From assembly GCA_018066285.1 (NCBI GenBank), contig JAGHRS010000024.1:1279-65278 (forward strand): a stretch of DNA of 64,000 nt, in the 5' to 3' direction. Made by a program: the position numbers and the translations under genes. The stretch is from Candidatus Treponema caballi. Lineage in GTDB: Bacteria > Spirochaetota > Spirochaetia > Treponematales > Treponemataceae. Within the stretch, counting starts at the first letter, position 1. Each line of letters opens with the position of its first letter. The notes under the pieces were generated by a model. That model was not told the DNA's origin and did not search any database. It was given only the letters and a program-made list of their open reading frames with translations. Shown in pieces: positions 16,596-54,080 of this stretch.

Positions 16596-19514
16596 ATGAA
16601 ACAGTCTGAAAAACCGGCTTTTGCGGCTGGTGCCGTTTTAATGGCTTTTGCAGCAGTGATTCTTACATCACTGATTATACAGTTACTCGATTTTGGAATT
16701 GCTCCCAGTGCGTTTGCTTATGCTCTCAGCAATTTCGGAAGAATGTTGTATACCGTATATGGCATTTCTTCTTTCCTGATTCCAGTGTATCTGTTTGTTT
16801 CTGCCATCCTTCTCTATCTTCCGGGATTTACGAAGAAACGTGGCGTATATCTGCTTTTTTCAATAATTCCGTTCTTCACGATTGTTGGAATTGAACGCTT
16901 CGGTACAAATCTGTTTGCATCCGAGGCTGCTGCATATCAGCTGATAAAATACAGCGCCATTGCTCTGGTAAGCGTTCTGGTTATTGCGATTGAATACCTG
17001 ATAATCGGAATTATTGTAGATTCAGTCATGGGTGGAGCACAACCTGCCCAGGTTCCTGTTAAGAAAGTTCCGTCTGCTTCTGTTTCTGAAGGCGTTTCAG
17101 AGAAAAAAGGCGTAACTGTTGGTGAAATTGGCGGAGAAGATGAGATTCCTGAACTTCCTTATGCTGAAGCATTAGTTGAAGAAGCTGCTCCTGAAGTTGA
17201 AGAAACTCCGGTTGCTGTTCCGCCGCCAGCTCCAGCACCAAAGCCAGTGAAGTTTGTTCATCGCGCTGAAATTGATACGACAGCATCTGAGATTGGTGAT
17301 ATAGACGAGGAAGAGCCTATTACGGTCGTGTTCGGAGCAGCTCCTGCAATGGATGTAGATGGAACGCCAGTTCCTGAAGAGACGGAGCCTGCTGTTGCAG
17401 AAGAGACTGTTGTACCTGAAGAGCCTGCTATTACAGAAGAGCCGCTTGTTGCAGGAGAACCTGCCGTGACTGAAGAACCAGCCATGACAGAAGAAACAGC
17501 TCCAGAAGCTCCTGCTGCAGAAGAGCCGGCTGTATCGGAAGCGCCTGCTGAAACTGAAGAGCAGGCAGAAGATGATGTTTCTGAAGAAGTTCTGAATAAA
17601 CTTGATGCTGCCCTTGATGAATTCCAGCTTCCTCCTGAAGCTTCAATTCCTGAGGATGTTCCTATAGCTCCGATTCAATTGACCCCATCCGCTCCTGTTG
17701 CAGAAACTGCGACAGTGACGGCTGCTGCAGTTCCCGCTGCCGCAGCTGTTGAGGCAGCTCCAGCTCCAGCAGAGCCGCCTGCTCCGGAAGTTGTGGAAGT
17801 GCAGGTTGCGTCTCCTGTTCAGGTAACTCCGGAAAACACGTTTGAGTCTGGGTTCGGCTTCCCTGAGGAAGATGAAGAACTGCCGGCAGAGTCAGAAATT
17901 GAGGCTCCGGTGCTTTCGGAAAGCGACCAGTCTGAAGTTGCCTCTGCATTAAAGGAGATTGACGCCGGTCTTTACAGCGAAGAAGAAGCGGCGTTCTTTG
18001 ACGATCCGTTTGAAGAGCAGTTAACCCTTGATGAGGGTGCCGGCGGTGACGCTGACGAGGGGGACGACAAAATCCCTTTTGAGGTGGCGCCGGTTAAAGG
18101 CGCCTACTCAGTCCCTACAGAAGGTATTCTGAATAGCTTCGAGAATAATCCGTACTGGATTATTGATGATGAGACTAAGCAGGCGGGAGCCATCCTTAAA
18201 GAGACTCTCAGTGAATTCAAGATAGAGGCAGAAGTGACAGGTATCCGTAAGGGTCCTGTCGTCACTATGTTCGAGATTCTGCCGGCACCGGGCGTAAAGC
18301 TTACCAAGATTGTTGCCCTGCAGGATAACATTGCACTGCGTCTGGCTGCTTCAAGCGTGCGTATCGTCGCCCCTATTCCTGGAAAGCAGGCGGTAGGCGT
18401 TGAAGTGCCAAACCGCGAGCGCGCAATGGTCAGCTTCCGTGAGCTGATTGAGAAGGAACTGCCGGCATACGACAAGATGCAGATTCCGGTCGTTCTCGGA
18501 AAGGACATCACCGGTGACGCTCAGGTGCTCGACTTGGCCGCTACCCCGCACCTTCTGATTGCAGGTTCCACAGGTTCAGGAAAGTCAGTCTGTGTAAACT
18601 CAATGATTCTTTCCATCCTGTACAAGCGCTCACCGAACGACGTTAAGCTCATCCTTATTGACCCGAAGATTGTCGAGCTCAAACTGTACAATGATATTCC
18701 GCATCTTCTGACGCCGGTCATCACCGAGCCAAAGAAGGCATTCCAGTCACTGCAGTACTGTCTGTGTGAGATGGAGCGCCGTTACGCAATGCTCGACCAC
18801 ATGGGCGTACGCGACATCAAGAGCTACAACAAGCGCATCAAGGAACGCCATGTCATGCAGGAGAAGCTGCCGTACATAGTCGTCGTCATTGATGAGTTCG
18901 CTGACCTTATGGCAACGACAGGCAAGGAGCTTGAAAGCACGATTGCCCGCCTGTGCGCAATGAGCCGCGCTGTCGGTATCCACCTGGTACTGGCAACACA
19001 GCGCCCTTCAATTGATGTCATCACCGGTCTTATCAAGGCGAATATCCCGACGCGCATCGCCTTCATGGTTGCGTCAAAGACAGACAGCCGCATCATCATT
19101 GACCAGATGGGCGCTGAAAAGCTGCTCGGAAAGGGCGATATGCTTTACGCAAGTGCCATCGATCCGTTCCCTGTCCGCATTCAGGGCACGTTCGTCACGG
19201 ATGATGAGGTCGAGAACGTCGTTGAGTACGTCAAGAAATACGGTCCGCCTGAGTATATCGATGAAGAAATCTTCGTTGAGGATGAGGATGATGAGACAGC
19301 AGAACCGTCCCTGTTCTCTGATGGCGAGGACCCGCTGTACGACCAGGCACTTGAAATCGTCGTTCAGGCAGGAAAAGCATCTGCTTCATATATTCAGCGC
19401 CGCCTGAAAATAGGATATAATAGAGCCGCACGTCTTGTTGAAGAGATGGAAGACCGCGGCATTGTAGGCCCTGCAAACGGCTCTAAACCACGCGAAATCA
19501 TTCATATCCCCTGA
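16596..19514 (+). CDS. ftsK: DNA translocase FtsK/SpoIIIE
   Basis: N-terminal TM segments, a Pro/Glu/Ala linker of about 350 aa, motor domain with Walker A GSTGSGKS and Walker B VVVIDEFADL, and a C-terminal gamma winged helix (YNRAARLVEEME). Confidence 0.95.
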   Translation: MKQSEKPAFAAGAVLMAFAAVILTSLIIQLLDFGIAPSAFAYALSNFGRMLYTVYGISSFLIPVYLFVSAILLYLPGFTKKRGVYLLFSIIPFFTIVGIERFGTNLFASEAAAYQLIKYSAIALVSVLVIAIEYLIIGIIVDSVMGGAQPAQVPVKKVPSASVSEGVSEKKGVTVGEIGGEDEIPELPYAEALVEEAAPEVEETPVAVPPPAPAPKPVKFVHRAEIDTTASEIGDIDEEEPITVVFGAAPAMDVDGTPVPEETEPAVAEETVVPEEPAITEEPLVAGEPAVTEEPAMTEETAPEAPAAEEPAVSEAPAETEEQAEDDVSEEVLNKLDAALDEFQLPPEASIPEDVPIAPIQLTPSAPVAETATVTAAAVPAAAAVEAAPAPAEPPAPEVVEVQVASPVQVTPENTFESGFGFPEEDEELPAESEIEAPVLSESDQSEVASALKEIDAGLYSEEEAAFFDDPFEEQLTLDEGAGGDADEGDDKIPFEVAPVKGAYSVPTEGILNSFENNPYWIIDDETKQAGAILKETLSEFKIEAEVTGIRKGPVVTMFEILPAPGVKLTKIVALQDNIALRLAASSVRIVAPIPGKQAVGVEVPNRERAMVSFRELIEKELPAYDKMQIPVVLGKDITGDAQVLDLAATPHLLIAGSTGSGKSVCVNSMILSILYKRSPNDVKLILIDPKIVELKLYNDIPHLLTPVITEPKKAFQSLQYCLCEMERRYAMLDHMGVRDIKSYNKRIKERHVMQEKLPYIVVVIDEFADLMATTGKELESTIARLCAMSRAVGIHLVLATQRPSIDVITGLIKANIPTRIAFMVASKTDSRIIIDQMGAEKLLGKGDMLYASAIDPFPVRIQGTFVTDDEVENVVEYVKKYGPPEYIDEEIFVEDEDDETAEPSLFSDGEDPLYDQALEIVVQAGKASASYIQRRLKIGYNRAARLVEEMEDRGIVGPANGSKPREIIHIP

Positions 19515-19543: not shown

Positions 19544-21901
19544 GTGGATATTTCTGAAGTCATCATAATACAGCCTCCGCTGGTGCAGCTGAACACTCCG
19601 TACCCGTCGGGGGCTTATCTTTCTGCTTTTTTCCGCTCCCAGCTTCCGGAAAGCGTTCCGGTCGTCTGGCACGACCTGAGCATAGCCCTTTTTCACCGCA
19701 TATTTTCCCGCACCGGACTGACAGAACTTTTTTCAGCCACGAGTGCGCGTGCCCTTGAGCTTGCCGCAGAATCCGAGAACCGCGGAGATGACGACACAGC
19801 CTTCAACCTGCGCCGTTACGTAAGTTCCGCCCCGCTTTGGGTTGAGTGGATTGATGATATTGTGGACATGCTCTGCTCGGGGAGCCGCGAGAAAGCTCAT
19901 GAATTCGTGCGTTCAGCCCATGCTCCCCGCGGTGCACGTATGGAACGCTTTTTAAGTGAGCTCGGCCGCGATGTCAGCGTCGACGATGAGCGCATGCTCG
20001 CCTCCCTCGCGCTGGCAGACCTTGCTGATTACATAACCGTCGTGTTTGACGAAAACTTCGCGCTCATCCGCTATGCCGAGTCGCTTTCGGCCAGCACGGC
20101 CACGTTCGCCGATATTGCCGCAGCCGCTGACTCGCCGGTCATGAAGGCGTTCTACGTGCCTTTGCTGCGCGAAGTGCTTGGTTCACAAGAAGACAACAGT
20201 GCGCTTATAAGGCCTGCGCCCGCCGCCGGCAGGAAGTTCTTTTTGGTGACGGTGCCGTTCGCGGGCTGCTTTGCTGCCGCCCTCGCCACGTGCCGCGAAA
20301 TAAAGGCCTGCTTTGGCGACGACGCTGTCGTATGCATGGGCGGCGGATATGTGAACACGGCCCTGCGCGGCACGCATGAAAGTGCACTTTCTGAGTACGT
20401 GGACTTCCTGAGTTTTGACCGCGGCTATGCGTTCTATCTGGACCTGCTTCACGCGGGCGCGGATGCCTTGAAAGTTGATGATGCCTTATTTGAAAACAGC
20501 GCACAAGAAGGCCAGAGTCCGCTTTCAAGGCAGGGCGCCGCAGATTCCCCTTCAGACGCGAAAATCGGGGCCGCCAGAGCGTTTTCTGGTGGTAAAGTGA
20601 CAAATTACTTTCCGACAGCTGAAAGTCTCGCTCAGGAAGAGATACTGACGCGGACCCTCATTCCCGACTACAGCGACATCGACTTTTCTTTGTATCCGCG
20701 CGTTGCGGATGACATTAATCCCATGCACAGAATCTGGTCGGACGGCGCCTGGCTCAAGGCGTACCTGGCTCACGGCTGCTACTGGCACCGCTGCGCATTC
20801 TGTGACACGCAGCTCGACTACGTCTGCAACTATAAGCGCGTCGGGGCTGCTGAACTGCATGAGGGCCTTTCGCGCCAGGCAGAAGAGAAGGGCGTGTACG
20901 GCGTCCATTTTGTGGATGAAGCTGCGCCGCCAGCTGCACTCAAGGAGTTCGCGCTCGCCAATGTAAAGAGCGACCGCCGCCGTCTTTCGTTCTGGGGCAA
21001 TATCCGCTTTGAAAAGGCGTTCACCCGCGACGCAGCAGATTTACTTGCATACGGCGGGCTCACCGGCGTTTCGGGCGGCATCGAGATTGCATCCGGAGAA
21101 GGTCTTGCCGACATCAATAAGGGCATCGACATAGACAGCCTGGTCGGCTCTTGTGCCGCCTTCAAGGAAGCGGGCGTGCTTGTGCATGCGTACATGATCT
21201 ACGGCTTTTACAACGAGACGCCACAGATGCTCATAGACAGTGCGGAAACGCTCCGGCAGCTGTTCGCCGCGGGATTGATTGACAGCGCTTTCTGGCACAA
21301 GTTCACGCTCACCCGTCACTCGACCGTGTACGCTGAGTGGCTGGCTGGCAAGCACCCCGAGCTGCACCCGCTGAAAGCAGATGGCGCGCGCGCGTTCGCG
21401 GATTACGAGCTTCATTTTGAAGGCGAAGAGAAAAGCGAGAAGTATGGCGCGCCTCTTATGGCGGCACTCGACGCCTGGATGCATGGCCACAGTCTGAACA
21501 AGAGCGTCCAGAAGTGGTTCCCGTTCGCCATGCCCGCGCCGAAAGTGCCGGCTGATTTTGTAAATAAGGCAATCGCCCGTTACGAGAAGCGCCGCGACGC
21601 TGCATTTGCAGAAGCGCTGCCATCCTCGCTGGATGAACTAAGGAGCGCGTTCGTCTGGCTCGGCGGAAAGCCCGCGGTCCTCGCTTCTTCAAGTGGCGCG
21701 CAGCTCTGCTGGTCGTACATGGGCGAGCTTGTGTACGCGGATGCAGCTTCACGCGCGCTCGCGGAAAAAGCGGCTGAGCTCTTGTGGTCGCTGCGCCCGG
21801 GCGTGAAAGCGGCCGGGTCTGCTGTTAGGGCATCATCCGCTGAGAAAGCCGTCCTCGCTGTGTTGCAGCAGGCGCGTGGCGTGGGACTGTGCAGGGTATA
21901 A
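19544..21901 (+). CDS. Large radical-SAM protein with an N-terminal B12-binding-like domain
   Basis: GTG start preceded by GGGGGAG. IIIQPPLVQLNTPYPSGAYLSAF resembles class-B radical-SAM N-termini. Cys cluster CYWHRCAFC at 20777-20803. 785 aa and GC-rich. Confidence 0.8.
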   Translation: MDISEVIIIQPPLVQLNTPYPSGAYLSAFFRSQLPESVPVVWHDLSIALFHRIFSRTGLTELFSATSARALELAAESENRGDDDTAFNLRRYVSSAPLWVEWIDDIVDMLCSGSREKAHEFVRSAHAPRGARMERFLSELGRDVSVDDERMLASLALADLADYITVVFDENFALIRYAESLSASTATFADIAAAADSPVMKAFYVPLLREVLGSQEDNSALIRPAPAAGRKFFLVTVPFAGCFAAALATCREIKACFGDDAVVCMGGGYVNTALRGTHESALSEYVDFLSFDRGYAFYLDLLHAGADALKVDDALFENSAQEGQSPLSRQGAADSPSDAKIGAARAFSGGKVTNYFPTAESLAQEEILTRTLIPDYSDIDFSLYPRVADDINPMHRIWSDGAWLKAYLAHGCYWHRCAFCDTQLDYVCNYKRVGAAELHEGLSRQAEEKGVYGVHFVDEAAPPAALKEFALANVKSDRRRLSFWGNIRFEKAFTRDAADLLAYGGLTGVSGGIEIASGEGLADINKGIDIDSLVGSCAAFKEAGVLVHAYMIYGFYNETPQMLIDSAETLRQLFAAGLIDSAFWHKFTLTRHSTVYAEWLAGKHPELHPLKADGARAFADYELHFEGEEKSEKYGAPLMAALDAWMHGHSLNKSVQKWFPFAMPAPKVPADFVNKAIARYEKRRDAAFAEALPSSLDELRSAFVWLGGKPAVLASSSGAQLCWSYMGELVYADAASRALAEKAAELLWSLRPGVKAAGSAVRASSAEKAVLAVLQQARGVGLCRV

Positions 21902-46393: not shown

Positions 46394-48883
46394 ATGATTA
46401 GTAGTATGAAAAATAGTTTGTGGTACAAAAAACCGGCTTCTGACTGGAACGAAGCTCTTCCACTTGGCTCTGGCCGTCTTGGCATGATGATTTTTGGCCA
46501 GCCTTGCTTTGAGGTTGTGCAGCTCAATGAGGACTCAGTCTGGTCTGGCATGTTCCGAAACCGTAATAATCCGGATGCGCTGAAAACCCTTCCCGAGGTG
46601 CGCCGCCTGCTTTCCGAAGGCGACATCCGCGGGGCACAGAAGCTCGCCATGGAAGGCCTGAGCGGCGTTCCCACACAGGAAAGGGGCTACCAGACCGCCG
46701 GCAATCTGAACATAACGCACCTCGCTGACTGCGCCACCGGCTGCCACGGAGAGTTCCCGCTGCCAGATGCCCCGCTCGGCGGAGAAAACGCTTCAGGCGT
46801 CACAAACTATCGGCGCGAGCTTACTCTTTCAACAGCAGTTGCGTCCGTTTCCTTTGAGAGTGCCGGCATCCGCTTTACCAGAGAATACTTCGCCACAGCC
46901 GCTGACGATGTGCTTGTCATCCGCATTTCAGCAGATAAGCCGGGCGCTGTCAGTTTCAGGGCGTCTCTTGACCGCGGCGCTTTTGAAGACACGAAAGGCG
47001 CAGTTGACGGCCGTACTGTCTTCATGGCCGATTCTCACGGCGTTCCGTTTTTTGAGGCTGTCCGGGCTGTGGCAGATGGCGGTACTGTGCGTACTGCAGG
47101 CGAGTTCCTGATTGTAGAGAACGCCGACGATGCCATTTTATTCGTTGATATAGAGACCGCTTTCCGGGAAGCTGATCCGCGTGCCGCCTGCCTTAAGAAA
47201 CTTGATGAGGCAGTTGCCTGGGTTGATGCGATAAACGCTGAAGAAGCGCTCAGACAGCAGGCTTCTGGTTCATATTCAGGATCTGAACCTGCTTTCAAGA
47301 CCGCGCCCTCAGACGTGCTTTCTTCTGTGGATGACATTTCCATGCGGCACATGGGGGCAGCGCTTGCCTGTGCATCAGCTTTTTCTGTTGTTGATGACAG
47401 ATCAAAGGCGACCGTTCCCGTAAAAGCAGCAGGCGCCGCGTATGCTGCCCTTAAAATGCGCCACACCTCTGAGTATCAGCAGTATTTCGACAGGATGGAG
47501 CTGCGTCTGGGCGCCGCGCAAGATGAGCTGCCGACAGACGAGCGGCTTGCTGCTTTTGACGGCTCAGATCTTGATCTTATCCGCCTGTACGCTGATTTCG
47601 GCCGTTATCTGCTGATTTCGAGCAGCCGCCCCGGTACGCTTCCCGCAAACCTGCAGGGCATCTGGTGCAAGGATATTGAGTCGCCGTGGGGCAGCAAGTA
47701 CACCATCAACATTAATACCGAGATGAACTACTGGCCAGCTGCCATGTGCAACCTTGCTGAAATGGAAGAGCCGCTGTTTGACCTGCTTGAGCGCATGGTT
47801 CCGAACGGCCGCGAAACGGCAAGGAACATGTACGGCTGCCGTGGCTTTACCGCACACCACAATACCGACATCTGGGGCGACACTGCACCGCAGGACATCT
47901 GGCTGCCTGCAAGCTACTGGGTGCTTGGCGCCGCCTGGCTCTGTACTCACGTCATTACTCACTTTGAATACACGCAGGACATGGATTTCCTGAAACGGAT
48001 GTATCCGGTGCTTCATGAGGCATGTCTTTTCTTTGTGGATTTCCTGACAGAAGGGACAGAGGATGTCCCTCTGAAAGACGACCGCGTCGTCAAAAACCTG
48101 ACGGTGAATCCATCCACGTCGCCGGAGAACACGTACCGCCTTCCGAACGGGCAGACGGGCTGCATGTGCCCTGGATGCGAAATGGACAACCGCATACTGG
48201 AACAGCTTTTCTCAGGCACGATTCATGCGGCTGCCCTGCTTGGTGAAACTGAGGACGTGGACGCGTTCAATGCTGTACTCGAGCGGCTCCTCCCGCCGGT
48301 TGTCGGAAGCGATGGCCGCATCCGCGAATGGAACGGCGAGTTTGAGGAAGTTGAGCCGGGCCACAGACACATTTCACATCTGTACGGACTGTTCCCGGGT
48401 AACACAATCAACCGTTTTGACACACCAGAACTGGCCCGGGCGGCTGAAAAGATGCTGGAGCACCGGCTTTCACATGGCGGTGGCCACACAGGCTGGAGCC
48501 GCGCCTGGATCATCAACTTTTACGCATCGCTTGGAAACGGAGAAAAGGCGGGCGAAAACGTCAGCGCACTTCTTGCAAAATCAACGCTCGGCAACCTGTT
48601 CGACAACCATCCGCCGTTCCAGATTGACGGCAACTTTGGCGGGCTTACGGGCATCATCCGCATGTTGGTGCAGAGCCGCATAAAGGACGGAAAAGTGCTT
48701 GTTGAGCTTCTGCCCGCCCTGCCTGATTCCTGGAAGGACGGAAGTCTCCGCGGTGTGGCGCTGAAGGGCAATCTGCTTGCTGATTTTGAGTGGAAGGGCG
48801 GAAAACTCACGCAGTATGCTGTGTATCCGGTTGAAGGAAAAGAGCCGTTTCCGTACACGCTTATCATGCCCGAAGAAAGATAA
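46394..48883 (+). CDS. Glycoside hydrolase family 95 (alpha-L-fucosidase-like)
   Basis: N-terminus LWYKKPASDWNEALPLGSGRLGMMIFG...VQLNEDSVWSG and downstream YTININTEMNYWP and GWSRAWIINFYA are typical of GH95. An alternative ATG is at 46409. Confidence 0.85.
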   Translation: MISSMKNSLWYKKPASDWNEALPLGSGRLGMMIFGQPCFEVVQLNEDSVWSGMFRNRNNPDALKTLPEVRRLLSEGDIRGAQKLAMEGLSGVPTQERGYQTAGNLNITHLADCATGCHGEFPLPDAPLGGENASGVTNYRRELTLSTAVASVSFESAGIRFTREYFATAADDVLVIRISADKPGAVSFRASLDRGAFEDTKGAVDGRTVFMADSHGVPFFEAVRAVADGGTVRTAGEFLIVENADDAILFVDIETAFREADPRAACLKKLDEAVAWVDAINAEEALRQQASGSYSGSEPAFKTAPSDVLSSVDDISMRHMGAALACASAFSVVDDRSKATVPVKAAGAAYAALKMRHTSEYQQYFDRMELRLGAAQDELPTDERLAAFDGSDLDLIRLYADFGRYLLISSSRPGTLPANLQGIWCKDIESPWGSKYTININTEMNYWPAAMCNLAEMEEPLFDLLERMVPNGRETARNMYGCRGFTAHHNTDIWGDTAPQDIWLPASYWVLGAAWLCTHVITHFEYTQDMDFLKRMYPVLHEACLFFVDFLTEGTEDVPLKDDRVVKNLTVNPSTSPENTYRLPNGQTGCMCPGCEMDNRILEQLFSGTIHAAALLGETEDVDAFNAVLERLLPPVVGSDGRIREWNGEFEEVEPGHRHISHLYGLFPGNTINRFDTPELARAAEKMLEHRLSHGGGHTGWSRAWIINFYASLGNGEKAGENVSALLAKSTLGNLFDNHPPFQIDGNFGGLTGIIRMLVQSRIKDGKVLVELLPALPDSWKDGSLRGVALKGNLLADFEWKGGKLTQYAVYPVEGKEPFPYTLIMPEER

Positions 48884-48898
48884 CTCTGCTGATAAGGC

Positions 48899-50008
48899 AT
48901 GTGCGCCAAACGCTGCCGGATGTGCTATACTTCCCGTATGGCAGAATTAAAATCATTCGCATTACGCGACATTCCTCACCGCATTCACGGCAGGACAGGT
49001 ACGCCCGACATTACGGGCACAGAAGATATAGCCCTTTTCTGGCACGGCAGCGCGCTTGAAGTAAAAGTAAGCGCTTCAGAACTGTGGGTTGATGTATCCG
49101 TCGACTTTGAAATCCACGAACCGTGGGTCCTCATCGAGATAAACGGCGCGCTCATCGGCCGTCAGATGCTGCAGCGCGGCGGGCAGAAAGTGTGTCTTTT
49201 CCGGAACTTTGACCCGACGCTTGTCCACACAGTGAAGTTCATCAAGGATACGCAGGCCATGAACGATGACGACGAGAAAATCCACTCGCTTGTCGTGCGC
49301 GGTATTGAAGCGTCTGATGCTAAGTTCTTCCCGGTGGATGAGCATCCGTACAAGTTCGAGTTCATCGGCGACAGCATTACGAGCGGCGAAGGCCTCCGCG
49401 GTGCACATGAAGAAATGCAGTGGATTACTGCCTGGATGAGCACCATCAACCAATACGGAGTTGCAACCGCGCGTCATTTCAATGCAGAATACCGCTTTGT
49501 CTCACAGGGCGGCTGGGGCATCATCTCCGGATGGGACGGGGATCTGCGACATACGATTCCGTCAGTGTACAAGAAGATTTGCGGCGTTACTCACGGGGAA
49601 CGCAACGTGAAGATGGGAAGCCAGCATGACTATGATTTTGCTTCCTGGCAGCCGGATGCAGTCATCATCAACCTTGGAACAAATGATTCGACAGCGTTCT
49701 CTACGGGTGTTGCGAAAGTGACCCGCGCCCAGTTTGTCGATGCCGCTGTTGATTTCCTTAAAACAGTCCGTGAGAATAATCCAAAAGCATATATCGTATG
49801 GATTTATGGGATGTGCGAAGTTGGCCTTACCCGTGAGATTGGAAACGCAGTTTCACGCTATATTGCTGAAACAGGGGATGAGCGTATCGCGTATCAGACA
49901 GCGGTAACGATGACCGAACAGTCGTTCGGTTCGCGTCAGCACCCGGGTCCGCTTATCCACGAAAAGGCAGCCAACCAGCTGATTTCTTTCCTGAGCCAGG
50001 TGCTCTGA
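48899..50008 (+). CDS. SGNH/GDSL hydrolase with an N-terminal beta-sandwich (CE2-like carbohydrate esterase)
   Basis: FEFIGDSITSGEG and INLGTNDS blocks. The start could be 48899, 48920 or 48938. Confidence 0.75.
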   Translation: MCAKRCRMCYTSRMAELKSFALRDIPHRIHGRTGTPDITGTEDIALFWHGSALEVKVSASELWVDVSVDFEIHEPWVLIEINGALIGRQMLQRGGQKVCLFRNFDPTLVHTVKFIKDTQAMNDDDEKIHSLVVRGIEASDAKFFPVDEHPYKFEFIGDSITSGEGLRGAHEEMQWITAWMSTINQYGVATARHFNAEYRFVSQGGWGIISGWDGDLRHTIPSVYKKICGVTHGERNVKMGSQHDYDFASWQPDAVIINLGTNDSTAFSTGVAKVTRAQFVDAAVDFLKTVRENNPKAYIVWIYGMCEVGLTREIGNAVSRYIAETGDERIAYQTAVTMTEQSFGSRQHPGPLIHEKAANQLISFLSQVL

Positions 50009-50009
50009 G

Positions 50010-51854
50010 ATGAAACCGCTTTTCGCCGACAGCCGCCCGCTTGATGAACGCGCGCGCAAGGACTACGGCCTTACCACAGAGACGATGATGGAGCACGCCG
50101 CCATGGCCCTCGAAGCCGCCGTCCGCCGCGCGCTTGCCCGCACTCTGCTTTCAGAAGCTCAGAACGCTGACAAGGCCGCGTCCGCTTCTAAGGCCTGCGT
50201 GCCCGATTTGCTTTCCGACGCTCAGGACGCAAATAAGGCAACGTCCGCTTTCAAGGCAGCGGGCGCCCCGCGCGTCCTCATAGTCTGCGGCTCCGGCGAC
50301 AACGGCGGCGACGGATACGCGCTGGCCCGCCGTCTGCTTTCAGAGGCTGCGTGTGCTGACGGTTCGCTTTCTGAACCTTCATCTGCAGATAAGCCATCAG
50401 ACGCTTATAAGGCAACGGGCGCCCTCCCGCCGGAAAGTGTCGTCGTGTTTGCGGCTCGTCCGCCAAAGTCAGCCGCCTGCATTGCACAGGCTGAACGAGC
50501 CGAAAAAGCAGGCGTGCGTATTATTACTGACCTGCCGTCTTTAAACGCCGCGGCGGCCGTTGTCGACTGTCTTTTTGGAAGCGGTTTTCACGGCGCACCA
50601 GATGATGCAACTGCCGCCCTCATTGAAAAACTGAACGCGCTCGACGCTTGGAAAATAGCGTGCGATATCCCGAGCTGCCTGCCGTTTCTGGTGGCATCTG
50701 CAGATAAGGCATCTGTCGCTTTTAAGGCAGGGGCGCCCGTGTTCCGCGCGGATGAGACAATCACCATGGGCGCGCTCAAATTCGTTTTGTACGAAGATTT
50801 TGCAAAAGATTGGACGGGCGCCATCACTTGCGCGCCGCTCGGTGTGCCGCGTGAGCAGTTCGAGGCTCCATCCGCTTCGGTACCTGCCCCTGAAGCCTGG
50901 TTGCTTGAGGAAAGCGACCTGGTCCTTCCGCACCGCACAAAGCAGAACAGTAACAAGGGCACATACGGCCATGCAGCAATCGTTGTTGGCGACAAGTGCG
51001 GTGCAGGCATCATCGCGGGAACGGCTGCGTTAACGTACGGGGCAGGTCTTGTAACGCTCGTCACTGACAGGGATCTTGCCGCGCCCGAGTTCCTGCGCCA
51101 GGCCCAGCCGGCTGACAGATATGCTGAAGGCGTCTGTATGCTGATGCAGTCTCCGTCTTTTCCTGAAAACACGACGGCCGCTGCCCTTGGAATGGGACTT
51201 GGCCGCGATGAAGCTGCCATCGCCCGCGGTCAGCTGTTCCTTGATGAACTGATGAAGCGGCCTTCTGCCGGCGTCGTTATTGATGCCGACATGTGCTATC
51301 ACCCGGGCGTTCCCGCGTTCCTGAAAGCGCGCGCGGCAGGCCTTGAAAGCGTACAAGGGCCTGCTTTGGCAAGTGCAGCTGATATAAGCGGGGCCGGCTG
51401 TGAAAGCGCACCCCACTTCCGTACGGTGATTACGCCGCATCCGAAAGAGTTCAGTGCGCTGCTCGGACTGTGCGGTTTTGGCACGTTCTCCGTGAAAGAA
51501 ATCCAGTCACGGAGATGTGAGTTTGCACGCTTGTTCGCATCCGCATATCCAGGCGTTGTGCTCATCCTTAAGGGCGCGAATCTCGTCATTGCATGCGCAT
51601 CCGGCTCATCCGCTGACAGTGTCGGCTCATCCGCGTGTGAGCTGCTCGTGAATCCGCTCGGAATGCCGTGCCTCGCAAAAGCAGGATCTGGCGACGTTCT
51701 TGCAGGCCTTACAGCAGCGCTCCTCGCTCAGGGATGGGATGCGTTCGAAGCCGCGAAACAGGCTTCGCTCGCCCACACCTGTGCATCCCGCAGAATCAAG
51801 AACGATTTCGCCATGACGCCCTTTTCGCTGATGGATGAAATTGCGCAATTATAG
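50010..51854 (+). CDS. nnr: Bifunctional NAD(P)H-hydrate repair enzyme Nnr (epimerase plus ADP-dependent dehydratase)
   Basis: YjeF-N motif VCGSGDNGGDGYALARRL and C-terminal kinase-fold motifs (KGTYGHAAIVVG, AKAGSGDVLAG). The length is inflated by in-frame repeats. Confidence 0.9.
   Translation: MKPLFADSRPLDERARKDYGLTTETMMEHAAMALEAAVRRALARTLLSEAQNADKAASASKACVPDLLSDAQDANKATSAFKAAGAPRVLIVCGSGDNGGDGYALARRLLSEAACADGSLSEPSSADKPSDAYKATGALPPESVVVFAARPPKSAACIAQAERAEKAGVRIITDLPSLNAAAAVVDCLFGSGFHGAPDDATAALIEKLNALDAWKIACDIPSCLPFLVASADKASVAFKAGAPVFRADETITMGALKFVLYEDFAKDWTGAITCAPLGVPREQFEAPSASVPAPEAWLLEESDLVLPHRTKQNSNKGTYGHAAIVVGDKCGAGIIAGTAALTYGAGLVTLVTDRDLAAPEFLRQAQPADRYAEGVCMLMQSPSFPENTTAAALGMGLGRDEAAIARGQLFLDELMKRPSAGVVIDADMCYHPGVPAFLKARAAGLESVQGPALASAADISGAGCESAPHFRTVITPHPKEFSALLGLCGFGTFSVKEIQSRRCEFARLFASAYPGVVLILKGANLVIACASGSSADSVGSSACELLVNPLGMPCLAKAGSGDVLAGLTAALLAQGWDAFEAAKQASLAHTCASRRIKNDFAMTPFSLMDEIAQL
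50145..50424 (+). repeat. In-frame GC-rich repeat copies 1-3 inside nnr
   Basis: Copies at 50145-50204, 50208-50269 (63-bp offset) and 50334-50424 share CTGCTTTC(A/C)GA...GC(A/T)GA(C/T)AAGGC...CGCTT(C/T)(T/C)AAGGC...GGGCGCCC. They encode LLSEAQNADKAASASKA..., LLSDAQDANKATSAFKAAGAP and LLSEAA...SSADKPSDAYKATGA. Confidence 0.65.
50697..50738 (+). repeat. In-frame GC-rich repeat copy 4 inside nnr
   Basis: TCTGCAGATAAGGCATCTGTCGCTTTTAAGGCAGGGGCGCCC compared with TCTGCAGATAAGCCATCAGACGCTTATAAGGCAACGGGCGCCC at 50382-50424. Confidence 0.7.
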
Positions 51855-52453: not shown

Positions 52454-52464
52454 AAACGCATCTT

Positions 52465-52538
52465 GGGGGTGTAGCTCACCTGGCTAGAGCGTTTGAATGG
52501 CATTCAAAAGGTAGTCGGTTCAAGTCCGATCATCTCCA
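52465..52538 (+). tRNA. tRNA-Ala (anticodon GGC)
   Basis: Hand-folded: acceptor GGGGGTG/CATCTCC with the G3:U70 Ala identity pair, D arm GCTC/GAGC, anticodon loop ATGGCAT, T arm GTCGG-TTCAAGT-CCGAT. No encoded CCA. Confidence 0.9.
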
Positions 52539-52545
52539 TAGAAAG

Positions 52546-52578: not shown

Positions 52579-52603
52579 TAAATCAATCATTCTGAAACTT
52601 CGT

Positions 52604-52624
52604 GTCGGACTAGAACCGACTACC
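52604..52624 (-). repeat. Inverted partial copy of the tRNA-Ala variable-loop/T-arm
   Basis: The minus strand reads GGTAGTCGGTTCTAGTCCGAC, against GGTAGTCGGTTCAAGTCCGAT at 52510-52530. That is 19/21 identical. Confidence 0.6.
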
Positions 52625-52859
52625 GGAGCAGCCACTATACCAGACTGGTCGCGAGAACGCGGAACGCGTTGTCGCTCCGGCGCGGGACGGAGCTTTAGTA
52701 CCACACTGCTGACCAAGGCGCCGGCGTGAGCAGTGCGGAACAATTTGTGGAAAAGTCGTCGAAAACGACGGTAGCGAGCGAAGGCGCGCCCAGAGGGCTC
52801 GGTTCAAGTCGCGCCAAATATTGTCTTTCCGCTATTTATTGTGAATCTAATCTTCTTCC

Positions 52860-53445
52860 TTGTTACGCACGAAGTGCGGAGAAAAGCGGGCGAAAACGCA
52901 GAAAAAGCCTGCTTTCGCTGAATCTTGAAAAAGCCCTTTCAGCGAAAGCAGAAGAAAGCTCGCGATTTCTCTGTACAGAGGCGCCGGACGCTTTCGATGA
53001 GCGTGCGGAGAAAAGCGCCTTTTTCTGCAGTTTCTCTGCAAAATGGCGGGAGAGCGTGCTCTTTCAGCGGAGAAAACTGTGAAAAACGATCCGTTTTCCA
53101 CGCGCGGGTACGGAGAAATCGCCCAGAATTTGTGTATTTCGCTGAAAAATGCCTTAAAAAACGCGGTACAGGTCCCTTTTTCGAGCCTTTTCACAAACTG
53201 GGGACCTGCAATATGCGGAGAAAAGAGCAAAAATCGCGTTTTTCGCGGACGGGCGCTTGAAAGCGATGCTTTTTTTATGGAGATTTCGCGATTTTTCTGC
53301 GTGTTTTTTATGAAAACTGCTGAAATCCGCTGTTTTTTGGAAAAATCGCAGGTCCCCTAAAAGCGAAAAATGCTTTTTTGGGGGACCAAACTGCGCGAAA
53401 TGTAGCTTTTTTTGCGCGTCATGTCTTAAAAGCGGAGAAAGGCCG
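52860..53445. repeat. Degenerate low-complexity repeat block built on the word GCGGAGAAAAG
   Basis: The word or a one-off variant occurs at 52876, 53005, 53067, 53110, 53215 and 53432. TTTCGCTGAA recurs at about 52912 and 53137. No credible ORF. Confidence 0.55.
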
Positions 53446-53587
53446 TATGAGCGCAAGCGCGTCAGGGATTGGAGCACCTGCGGAGCAGTCCACCGCAGGG
53501 AGCGCGAGCGATCGAGGAGGATGAGCGTGAGCGAAGTGCGCAAAGCCCGGCGGCGCGAGCGGAGCGAGTGGCGGGACGCCCAAAATT

Positions 53588-53620
53588 GTGGTAAACGTCG
53601 GAATTCTAGTATTTTACCGA
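53588..53620. repeat. Solo copy of the GGTAAA-N17-TTTACC palindromic unit
   Basis: GGTAAACGTCGGAATTCTAGTATTTTACC closely matches units 5 and 6 of the 1358-1685 array (GGTAAATGTCGGAATTCTAGAATTTTACC). Confidence 0.75.
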
Positions 53621-53648
53621 TATTCCCACTGCTTTCTTTTGTGCTATA

Positions 53649-54080
53649 ATGCCTGGCATGAGAGTTAAGACACGTTATCAGAGTTTCAGGCAGGTTTTGG
53701 AGCAGGGGCCGCGCGCGGTTGTGCTGTATATCGTCAGTCAGGTGGTGTTTGCGGCTGTGCTGGCGGTCGCTATTTTGTTCCTGATAAAGGGCATTTTCAA
53801 GGCGAGTGGGCCGTACAAGCATTCAATCGGTGTGATTGAGACGAAGCCAGAGGTCATGCGGTATCTTGGGGATCAGTACCGGCAGAAGGGTTTTATCTTC
53901 GGGTCAATCAGGTTGAACGGGAAGAACGGAAGCGCTGATTTTTCATACAGGCTCCGAGGGATGAGCGGTGTTTCGAAGGTGAAGGTTACTGCGATAAAGG
54001 CAAGCGGTTCCTGGATATATACAGCGCTCTTTTTTTATCCGGATGCACGTGGGTCGGATGTGATTAATCTGCTGGAATAA
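53649..54080 (+). CDS. Small membrane-anchored protein, Coa1/Tim21-like fold (hypothetical)
   Basis: One TM segment then a beta-rich domain of about 90 aa (GPYKHSIGVIETKPEVMRYLG...GSADFSYRLRG...GSWIY). The start may be ATG 53658, which is 7 nt after the extended -10 TGCTATAAT. Confidence 0.5.
   Translation: MPGMRVKTRYQSFRQVLEQGPRAVVLYIVSQVVFAAVLAVAILFLIKGIFKASGPYKHSIGVIETKPEVMRYLGDQYRQKGFIFGSIRLNGKNGSADFSYRLRGMSGVSKVKVTAIKASGSWIYTALFFYPDARGSDVINLLE

Follow-up and report, generated by a model that had tools for sequence, protein, structure and literature searches.

We analysed a 64,000-nt window of DNA from Candidatus Treponema caballi (contig JAGHRS010000024.1), to which all plain coordinates below refer, and a short repeat that lies inside one of its genes, nnr. 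The nnr open reading frame (ORF; 50010-51854, plus strand) encodes a bifunctional NAD(P)H-hydrate epimerase/dehydratase of 614 amino acids (aa), ~120 aa longer than insert-free relatives. The protein has the domain order of the bifunctional Nnr fold, with an N-terminal YjeF_N epimerase domain (PF03853, 3.2e-26) and a C-terminal Carb_kinase dehydratase domain (PF01256, 3e-33). Within the gene, a ~63-nt unit occurs in four copies that run forward and keep the frame; beside them we found one half unit and a degenerate pair in reverse orientation. Relatives that were compared with the window carry L- and P-numbers (L138, P0004 and so on) as labels; most of the sequences in the comparison are short-read metagenome assemblies.

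Repeat units in nnr

We built an nhmmer profile from the four nnr copies and ran it on the 64-kb window, where it recovered them with E values from 7.7e-16 to 1.2e-14. Two units stand in tandem at site 1: unit 1 (50145-50207, plus strand; LLSEAQNADKAASASKACVPD in the sense frame; E 3.7e-15) and unit 2 (50208-50270, plus strand; LLSDAQDANKATSAFKAAGAP; E 2.5e-15), which lies just upstream of the VCGSGDNGGDG motif. Their offset is exactly 63 nt, and they are 80% identical (50146-50194 versus 50209-50257). Site 2, after ALARRL, begins with a half unit that represents the 5' part (50334-50366, plus strand; LLSEAACADGS), recognised from the repeat family and alignments, and continues with unit 3 (50367-50429, plus strand; LSEPSSADKPSDAYKATGALP; E 7.7e-16). 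The unit 3 region is 63% identical to the first copy (over 50365-50413) and 89% identical to unit 4 (50380-50414 versus 50695-50729). Unit 4 (50691-50738, plus strand; (FL)VASADKASVAFKAGAP; E 1.2e-14) is 5'-truncated and lies at site 4, after DIPSCLPFL. All four copies keep the nnr reading frame. A degenerate core pattern matched five times against 0.04 expected, and an iterated nhmmer profile (the clade profile), searched over 169.5 kb of clade DNA, found 48 copies, against 0 in a reversed-sequence control. The initial annotation of this stretch had reported tandem copies at a 63-bp offset and further copies in the nnr frame, one set just before VCGSGDNGGDG and another just after ALARRL, and the repeat search and nhmmer confirmed these positions. 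It had also assigned unit 4 to the linker, whereas this copy lies inside the YjeF_N Pfam stretch (residues 144-257), just after the DIPS motif.

A fifth copy had been proposed around 51340-51400. Repeat sequence is present there (site 5, 51336-51413; AGLESVQGPALASAADISGAGCESAP), weakly scored (E 0.013), on the minus strand and in another frame rather than in the orientation first assumed. Its minus-strand cores are CGCTTTCAAGGC at 51340-51351 and a degenerate second core at 51397-51408. The site is translated in an antisense frame (GLESV) that is a fourth frame of the repeat, in which the TGA stop of the consensus has been mutated away. Downstream, at site 6, the window carries a 21-nt tandem duplication (51602-51622, plus strand; GSSADSV followed by GSSAC) that is absent in L138 and unrelated in sequence to the repeat family; it reflects the same slippage-type process acting in nnr on a different sequence.

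The description of the repeat as GC-rich holds relative to the window (units 0.54-0.62, window 0.483) and not relative to nnr without inserts (0.594); the idea that the inserts are GC-rich islands was rejected, as their GC is that of the host gene. A CAGAT..ATCTG palindrome does occur in copy 4, and in copy 4 only. When folded as DNA, the four nnr units gave z scores of -0.21 to +0.63 against shuffles, so a hairpin or palindrome as a property of single units was rejected, and we found no terminal inverted repeats (TIRs) within units.

Sites 1 and 2 resemble each other beyond the units themselves. The half unit of site 2 with its upstream flank (50318-50360) is 79% identical over 43 nt to 50129-50171, at a distance of exactly 189 (3x63) nt, and the two sites share a 13-nt upstream flank (GCGCT(T/G)GCCCGC, 'ALAR'). 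ALAR is native at site 2 (YALARRL, conserved in most Nnr proteins) and is missing at site 1 of P0004, a relative without the array. A shared flank at a 3x63-nt distance that is absent from site 1 of P0004 suggests that one of the two nnr arrays is a copy of the other, made with the flank included.

Variation among relatives

We aligned the window Nnr with homologs of increasing distance. Distant Nnr proteins of Treponema and Treponemataceae, of ~493 aa, have gaps at every repeat segment, and the Helicobacter pylori structure 3K5W aligns across the same gaps (phmmer 1.9e-69); the segments are lineage-specific, as had been predicted. Distant Nnr homologs of more than 545 aa have loop inserts that are unrelated to the repeat. 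The Nnr proteins of nine close relatives (82-92% identity over the columns that align) are 543-728 aa long and carry 0-4 units at the same sites: 0-4 at site 1, 0-2.5 at site 2 and 0.5-3 at site 4, with further variable inserts in the C-terminal domain. L001/P0009 and P0005 lack site 2 altogether, whereas L002/P0007 have one unit more there than the window.

The differences follow the period of the repeat. The window and its closest relative, L138 (90.7% nucleotide identity), differ at site 1 by one exact, in-register 63-nt gap that corresponds to unit 1, with boundaries inside the repeated CTGCTTTCA/TTGCTTTCC motif; at site 5, 42 nt of the window are missing in L138. Among six relatives, site 4 varies in 18-nt steps bounded by AAGGCA, being one step shorter than the window in L139/L001 and 72 nt longer in L004. 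Variation extends to strains, as had been anticipated: within 90% clusters, the site 1 arrays of Nnr proteins that are 97.6% identical differ in length by 36 aa (108 nt), and proteins that are 99.4-99.7% identical are polymorphic for a 6-aa (18-nt) duplication of SESGRT. The nnr arrays thus behave as a coding variable-number tandem repeat (VNTR), with head-to-tail in-frame units and in-register copy-number polymorphism.

In neighbour-joining trees of ungapped columns, a secondary deletion is the best account of each 'empty' site that we examined. The trees show that the nnr arrays predate the clade (synonymous divergence, dS, up to ~0.8) and point to several independent losses. Copies of the repeat are restricted to a single genus-level clade of uncultured Treponemataceae.

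Reading frames of the repeat

The basic module of the repeat is 18 nt long, xxx-GCx-GAT/TTC-AAG-GCA, and reads roughly S-A-D/F-K-A-x. The consensus of the ~63-nt unit is GCTTTCTGGAGCxGCATCTGCAGATAAGGCATCATCCGCTTTCAAGGCAGCGGGCGCCC, which is free of stops in exactly three frames: the sense frame (LSGAASADKASSAFKAAGA), the frame shifted by +1 relative to it, here called sense +2 (FLEQHLQIRHHPLSRQRAP), and one antisense frame (APAALKADDALSADAAPES). Exactly these three frames are used in genes, at roughly 15 (sense), 2 (sense +2) and 6 (antisense) independent sites, figures that alignment bias and tandem amplification inflate. Exceptions are the degenerate antisense copy at nnr site 5, which has lost its stop, and copies in a non-coding spacer. 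Such frame usage bears the mark of inserted DNA that was then filtered for intact ORFs. Because all three stop-free frames are used and non-coding copies exist as well, we regard the element as a DNA repeat family rather than a peptide motif. Similarity between genes spans ~55 nt and includes synonymous positions and reverse-complement copies.

Copies in other genes

The second host gene in the window encodes a radical-SAM-like protein of 785 aa (19544-21901, plus strand; Pfam Radical_SAM, 1.4e-06), a match just below the family cut-off (29.0 versus 29.5 bits). It carries a partial copy consisting of the 3' half (20188-20219, plus strand; E 0.0046), read in the sense +2 frame as SALIRPAPAAG, at a position where L105 has 90 nt more of the repeat. 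A full-length reverse copy (20456-20509, minus strand) is read in the open antisense frame as GADALKVDDALFENSAQ and scores E 1e-6 with the nnr-only profile and 1.1e-10 with the clade profile. Together with a partial forward copy (20513-20537, plus strand; SPLSRQGA in the sense +2 frame; E 0.0026-0.0067), it forms an inverted pair with a folding z score of -2.49; at the partial copy, 39 nt are absent in L105 and 27 nt in strain P0246. Close homologs of this protein range from 779 to 887 aa and have element-derived inserts at four to six sites, for example LSRPAAAGAFKADNSQED..., ALKAGSAL..., ...SANKASSASKAP and EKAGATCAEKA; distant Treponemataceae proteins lack repeat inserts. At site C of this gene, the window and P0127/P0129 have no insert, and the length there is precisely the ancestral one.

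Related sequence had been reported in two GC-rich genes besides nnr. This is clear for the radical-SAM-like gene, whereas in the GH95 alpha-L-fucosidase-like gene (46394-48883) the element-like segment (47285-47443, plus strand; EPAFKTAPSD ... SKATVPVKAAGAAY; a core with two mismatches) is below threshold in the window; its L001 ortholog scores E 0.0027. The GH95 protein measures 817, 829, 836, 839 or 900 aa across the window and the syntenic relatives L001, L002, L004 and L138, as a result of in-frame inserts in at least four loops, those of the 47285-47443 segment included, some element-like (SLSEADCETVPESASKACGAA in L004) and others of unrelated low complexity. The spacer between the GH95 and SGNH-hydrolase genes holds a non-coding partial copy (48885-48907, plus strand; E 0.0091), and orthologous spacer copies are stronger (L002 3801-3874 and L004 8822-8893; E 1e-5 to 1e-4). 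The three repeat-carrying genes, in the order radical-SAM-like gene, GH95 gene and nnr, are the GC-richest long genes of the window (0.586, 0.557 and 0.593 versus 0.483). In nnr, GC at third codon positions (0.598) is no higher than total GC, so this richness stems from Ala/Gly/Arg/Pro-rich coding and not from codon bias.

We then scanned 185,579 species-representative genomes with the pattern RAYAAGGCA-N6-GCTT-N2-AAGGC (16 fixed and two two-fold positions; counts are lower bounds). One metagenome-assembled genome (MAG) of the Treponemataceae, JAZUFS01, gave at least 11 matches on at least 10 loci; the other matches listed are ~100 singletons in unrelated taxa, as expected by chance. Its hosts, as identified with Pfam, are an XPB-like helicase, an ATP-grasp protein, chorismate synthase, YgiQ, MnmE, an SSF symporter, a copper P-type ATPase (CopA), a PfkB kinase (three sites), and the ortholog of the radical-SAM-like protein, which is 89% identical to that of the window. 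The exact pattern recovers just 7 of 27 unbiased copies, a sensitivity from which we extrapolate a lower bound of ~40 copies in JAZUFS01. Relative L004 has a further pair of copies in an ABC substrate-binding protein. Overall, the family lies in loops of at least a dozen unrelated housekeeping genes besides nnr, in both orientations, plus one intergenic spacer. The expectation that the core would have further genomic copies is therefore borne out, with copies in the radical-SAM-like gene, the spacer and at least 10 JAZUFS01 contigs, on both strands and in several frames. Copies in different genes reach at best 81-84% identity over 35-48 nt, and median copy identity is 0.67 between genes and 0.69 within genes; nothing in these sequences would indicate recent bursts.

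Searches in wider collections gave little. In metagenome contigs of the Joint Genome Institute (JGI), a stricter core pattern returned 19 singletons that match the pattern alone, as expected by chance; this collection does not contain the lineage. When repeat peptides were joined into an artificial query and compared with 5.8 billion proteins, there were 47 candidates of which none scored, probably as a consequence of the word index and the low complexity of the query. With a natural 42-aa double unit, phmmer found among 1.84 billion representatives just the Nnr relative P0006 and a spurious hit, P0121. We rejected P0121, an actinobacterial multi-PASTA protein, as a carrier, as its 16 weak stretches are Ala/Glu/Ser coincidences. 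Single or diverged copies are undetectable at the protein level. Rfam detected two tRNAs in the window and nothing at the repeats, which do not belong to a known RNA family. The searchable literature yielded no account of a repeat family of this kind for Treponema or Treponemataceae, which is absence of evidence only.

Other members of the family have inserts of a different kind in the radical-SAM-like protein. P0130 and P0131, from other Treponemataceae, have a different array of 100-160 aa (GGSA.S.. / NSSNS.FTGG-type) at window residue ~477, and P0141 and P0147 have yet other inserts. In-frame loop expansion seems common in this spirochete family, and the recognisable interspersed repeat family is specific to the clade; lineage-specific coding repeats may be a general feature of Treponemataceae.

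Protein structure and constraint

We modelled the window Nnr with AlphaFold2 (73-sequence alignment; mean predicted local distance difference test score, pLDDT, 85.5). Residues 61-90, 111-140, 231-240, 441-470 and 531-540, at the inserts, form low-confidence blocks (pLDDT 45-69), and the segment at site 5 is below 50, whereas the core exceeds 90. A sixth low-pLDDT block, at 351-380, is another clade-specific segment. Foldseek aligned the model to 3K5W with an E value of 5.8e-40 and a template modelling (TM) score of 0.91 when normalised to the target and 0.69 when normalised to the query, a gap that ~150 extra residues outside the fold would produce. The inserts are thus predicted to be low-confidence loops outside an intact Nnr fold, in agreement with the surface-loop placement that had been proposed.

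We next compared substitution rates between core and insert columns of four genes, using Nei-Gojobori estimates. The ratio of nonsynonymous to synonymous divergence (dN/dS) is 0.35-0.48 in the inserts, a value inflated by alignment bias and tandem amplification, versus 0.10-0.15 in the core, with equal dS. Constraint on the inserts at the protein level is relaxed, though present. The possibility of an additional DNA-level constraint on synonymous sites was rejected, because insert dS equals core dS.

Comparison with known repeats

Several bacterial repeat classes share features with the treponeme repeat. Rickettsia palindromic elements (RPEs) are ~100-150 bp long, palindromic or hairpin-forming, and usually present in a single copy per site; they are dispersed in-frame in many unrelated housekeeping genes, are translated, compatible with the host fold and lineage-restricted, and also occur in non-coding DNA (Ogata et al. 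2000, 2002, summarised in PMC10969869). The treponeme repeat is likewise in-frame across many unrelated housekeeping genes, lineage-restricted and partly non-coding. It differs in its 63-nt unit of 18-nt modules, in its tandem arrays of 0-4 units with strain-level copy-number variation, in the lack of a hairpin (z ~0), in its use of three frames and both orientations, and in its phylum (Spirochaetota versus Alphaproteobacteria). It is closest to RPEs in behaviour, yet is probably not a member of the RPE family, from which the palindromy and length described for RPEs set it apart. Cases in which one interspersed repeat family has colonised many housekeeping ORFs in-frame are rare in bacteria and few are well documented, with RPEs as the textbook example. 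The treponeme repeat looks like an independent case in a different phylum and with a different architecture of short modular units, tandem arrays and several frames.

Bacterial MITEs (transposable elements of the miniature inverted-repeat kind), which are defined by terminal inverted repeats, target-site duplications (TSDs) and a parent insertion sequence (IS), are at times fused in-frame with ORFs, as in Correia, ERIC, the Coxiella QMITE and cyanobacterial MITEs (PMC10969869, PMC5896051). The treponeme repeat resembles them as a small non-autonomous interspersed repeat that lies inside genes and adds peptide segments, but we found neither a TIR nor, at the junctions compared, a TSD for it, and no parent IS in the ~170 kb examined. 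It is also distinct from the REP/REPIN-RAYT system, whose unit is an extragenic, imperfect palindrome of 20-40 nt; the treponeme copies are overwhelmingly intragenic and non-palindromic. Coding VNTRs share its in-frame, head-to-tail units and their change in number by slippage between strains. Classical coding VNTRs occupy a single locus, usually in a gene for a surface protein, and the 60-bp coding repeats of arp (TP0433) in Treponema pallidum are an example of such a coding minisatellite. The treponeme repeat, by contrast, is not private to one locus, and occurs in many unrelated, mostly cytosolic housekeeping genes and in both orientations.

PARCELs are tandem repeats of a 25-residue (75-nt) DUF285/TIGR02167 motif with DNA dyad symmetry, and their hosts are dedicated ORFs of unknown function, often membrane-targeted, rather than housekeeping enzymes (PMC2996958). 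Like the treponeme repeat, they form tandem arrays inside coding sequence and are believed to be reshuffled as DNA within their genomes. We rejected membership in this class, as Pfam found no DUF285 in nnr and ten host proteins, the period is 21 or 6 residues, and dyad symmetry is lacking. Housekeeping proteins of Plasmodium falciparum contain low-complexity inserts that are locus-specific and driven by Asn/Lys composition. These, too, are lineage-specific, fast-evolving, non-globular inserts generated by slippage in surface loops of conserved enzymes; unlike the treponeme inserts, they are not copies of one recognisable DNA repeat family.

Origin and spread of the repeat

The explanation we favour, with a probability of about 0.62, is a lineage-specific interspersed coding repeat that is tolerated in loops, resized by slippage and spread at the DNA level, and that is neither a peptide motif nor a classical transposon. 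Arrays change by in-register gain and loss of 63-nt units and 18-nt modules. The copies would be DNA-level passengers that survive just where the frame stays open and the loop is structurally permissive. Arrays would grow and shrink through slipped-strand mispairing or unequal recombination between AAGGCA-bounded modules, and new sites would be seeded rarely by copying of DNA without a transposase, through ectopic recombination or template switching primed by short homology. We favour such copying because boundaries are variable and ragged, partial units, head-to-head inverted pairs and shared flanks occur, and neither TIRs nor TSDs accompany them. The translated Ala/Lys/Ser-rich segments would be mostly neutral decorations of their proteins. 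The initial annotation had left open whether the element had landed in nnr or expanded within it. For expansion the in-register 63-nt and 18-nt indels are direct evidence. For landing the support is only indirect: copies are dispersed, lie in both orientations and include non-coding ones, and no insertion event was found.

Native motifs beside two of the sites resemble the repeat: outgroup Nnr proteins have G-A-F-K-A-D at site 4 (window 50679-50760), and the empty radical-SAM site C (window ~21380-21400) reads KADGARAFAD. These motifs may reflect homology seeding or may be coincidence; together with the flank shared by nnr sites 1 and 2, they are no more than a hint that new sites are seeded by homology.

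Some observations weigh against the explanation we favour. The homology-seeding idea is supported by three sites only, and we caught no seeding event at any site examined. Insert dN/dS, although inflated, is below 1, and independent sites favour the 'ADKA..AFKA' frame by a similarly inflated ~15:6:2, so some selection at the peptide level is possible. The absence of TSDs is weak evidence against transposition, because the empty alleles are probably secondary deletions.

It is possible, though we think it unlikely, that this coding element is of an undescribed kind and still active, either mobile or self-propagating, modular at 18 and 63 nt, without TIRs or hairpins, and specialised for ORFs; such an element might spread by homology-primed template switching, a single-strand transposase or a reverse transcriptase. 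Also unlikely is a miniature, non-autonomous transposable element, akin to MITEs or RPEs, that inserts into genes, is moved in trans by a transposase from another locus and is kept where the frame survives, with tandem arrays as a secondary development. Dispersal over at least 12 unrelated genes, both orientations and non-coding DNA would fit such an element, as would the likeness to RPE behaviour (PMC10969869) and the presence of inverted pairs that fold (z -2.5 and -1.7), and the exact ancestral length of radical-SAM site C could reflect precise excision or a repeatedly hit hot spot. However, single units have neither hairpin nor TIR, and no TSD was found at the junctions of nnr site 2 and radical-SAM sites A-C, where the alleles without an insert are apparently secondary deletions. 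The inserts differ in their boundaries and in length (39, 42, 90 and 105 nt, among others), no two copies from different genes exceed 84% identity, and no transposase adjoins any copy in the ~170 kb examined.

A peptide module that selection has kept or spread because its host proteins gain from it, be it a short linear motif or a flexible spacer rich in Ala and Lys ('ADKAxxAFKA'), is in our view improbable. The dN/dS below 1, the predominance of the sense frame among independent sites, the persistence of arrays through dS ~0.8 and the modelling of the first unit of nnr site 1 as a helix extension (pLDDT 85-90) speak for it. Yet the same DNA is read in three or four frames to give unrelated peptides and is present in non-coding sequence too, its hosts are proteins of the cytosol, membrane and periplasm that are unrelated to one another, and whole arrays have been lost repeatedly at no apparent cost; the inserts are 3-4 times less constrained than the core, and most insert residues have pLDDT below 70. 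Independent low-complexity expansions in each gene, convergent through Ala/Lys/Ser composition and codon bias and without common origin, are strongly disfavoured. Other Treponemataceae lineages do have unrelated low-complexity inserts in the same proteins, nnr has unrelated 21-nt and 18-nt duplications, and an FtsK linker in the window has 18-nt repeats. Against convergence, a profile made from nnr copies only finds the radical-SAM copy of the window at E 1e-6, one MAG has at least 11 exact pattern matches where other genomes have singletons, the reversed control has none, and similarity over ~55 nt includes synonymous positions and reverse-complement copies. We give hardly any weight to an assembly or binning artefact, in which repeats are collapsed or chimeric: most of the sequences are indeed short-read metagenome assemblies, but the same arrays recur with conserved synteny (GH95-SGNH-nnr) in at least six independent samples and assemblers (ENA, Logan, NCBI), the ORFs remain open, and units are diverged (60-89% identity) and so not prone to collapse.

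The arrays can be read as a natural experiment that shows which loops of a protein accept 6-60 additional residues. In Nnr, chorismate synthase, MnmE and similar hosts, slippage is at work on enzymes over the time that separates strains, and the arrays offer hypervariable markers for strain typing of this uncultured clade. If dispersal is active and new, the repeat bears on how proteins gain new segments, and an active element would generate diversity, across the genome, in the loops of housekeeping proteins in a lineage of gut spirochetes. If it is not, the repeat still warns that interspersed DNA repeats can lie behind differences in length and 'low-complexity' segments of MAG proteins.

Other features of the window

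An FtsK-like ORF (16596-19514) contains 18-nt and 15-nt tandem repeats at 17385-17570, which encode a PEEPA/VTEEPA acidic linker and are unrelated to the nnr repeat. Downstream of nnr lies a gene for tRNA-Ala(GGC) (52464-52539), followed 66 nt later by a 20-nt inverted copy of its 3' part (52605-52624, 95% complementary). The next ~1.4 kb (52600-54000) hold no convincing ORF, and GC skew is +0.21 to +0.24 at 53-55 kb. This tRNA-Ala region (52600-54000) may be an att-site remnant or a degraded island.

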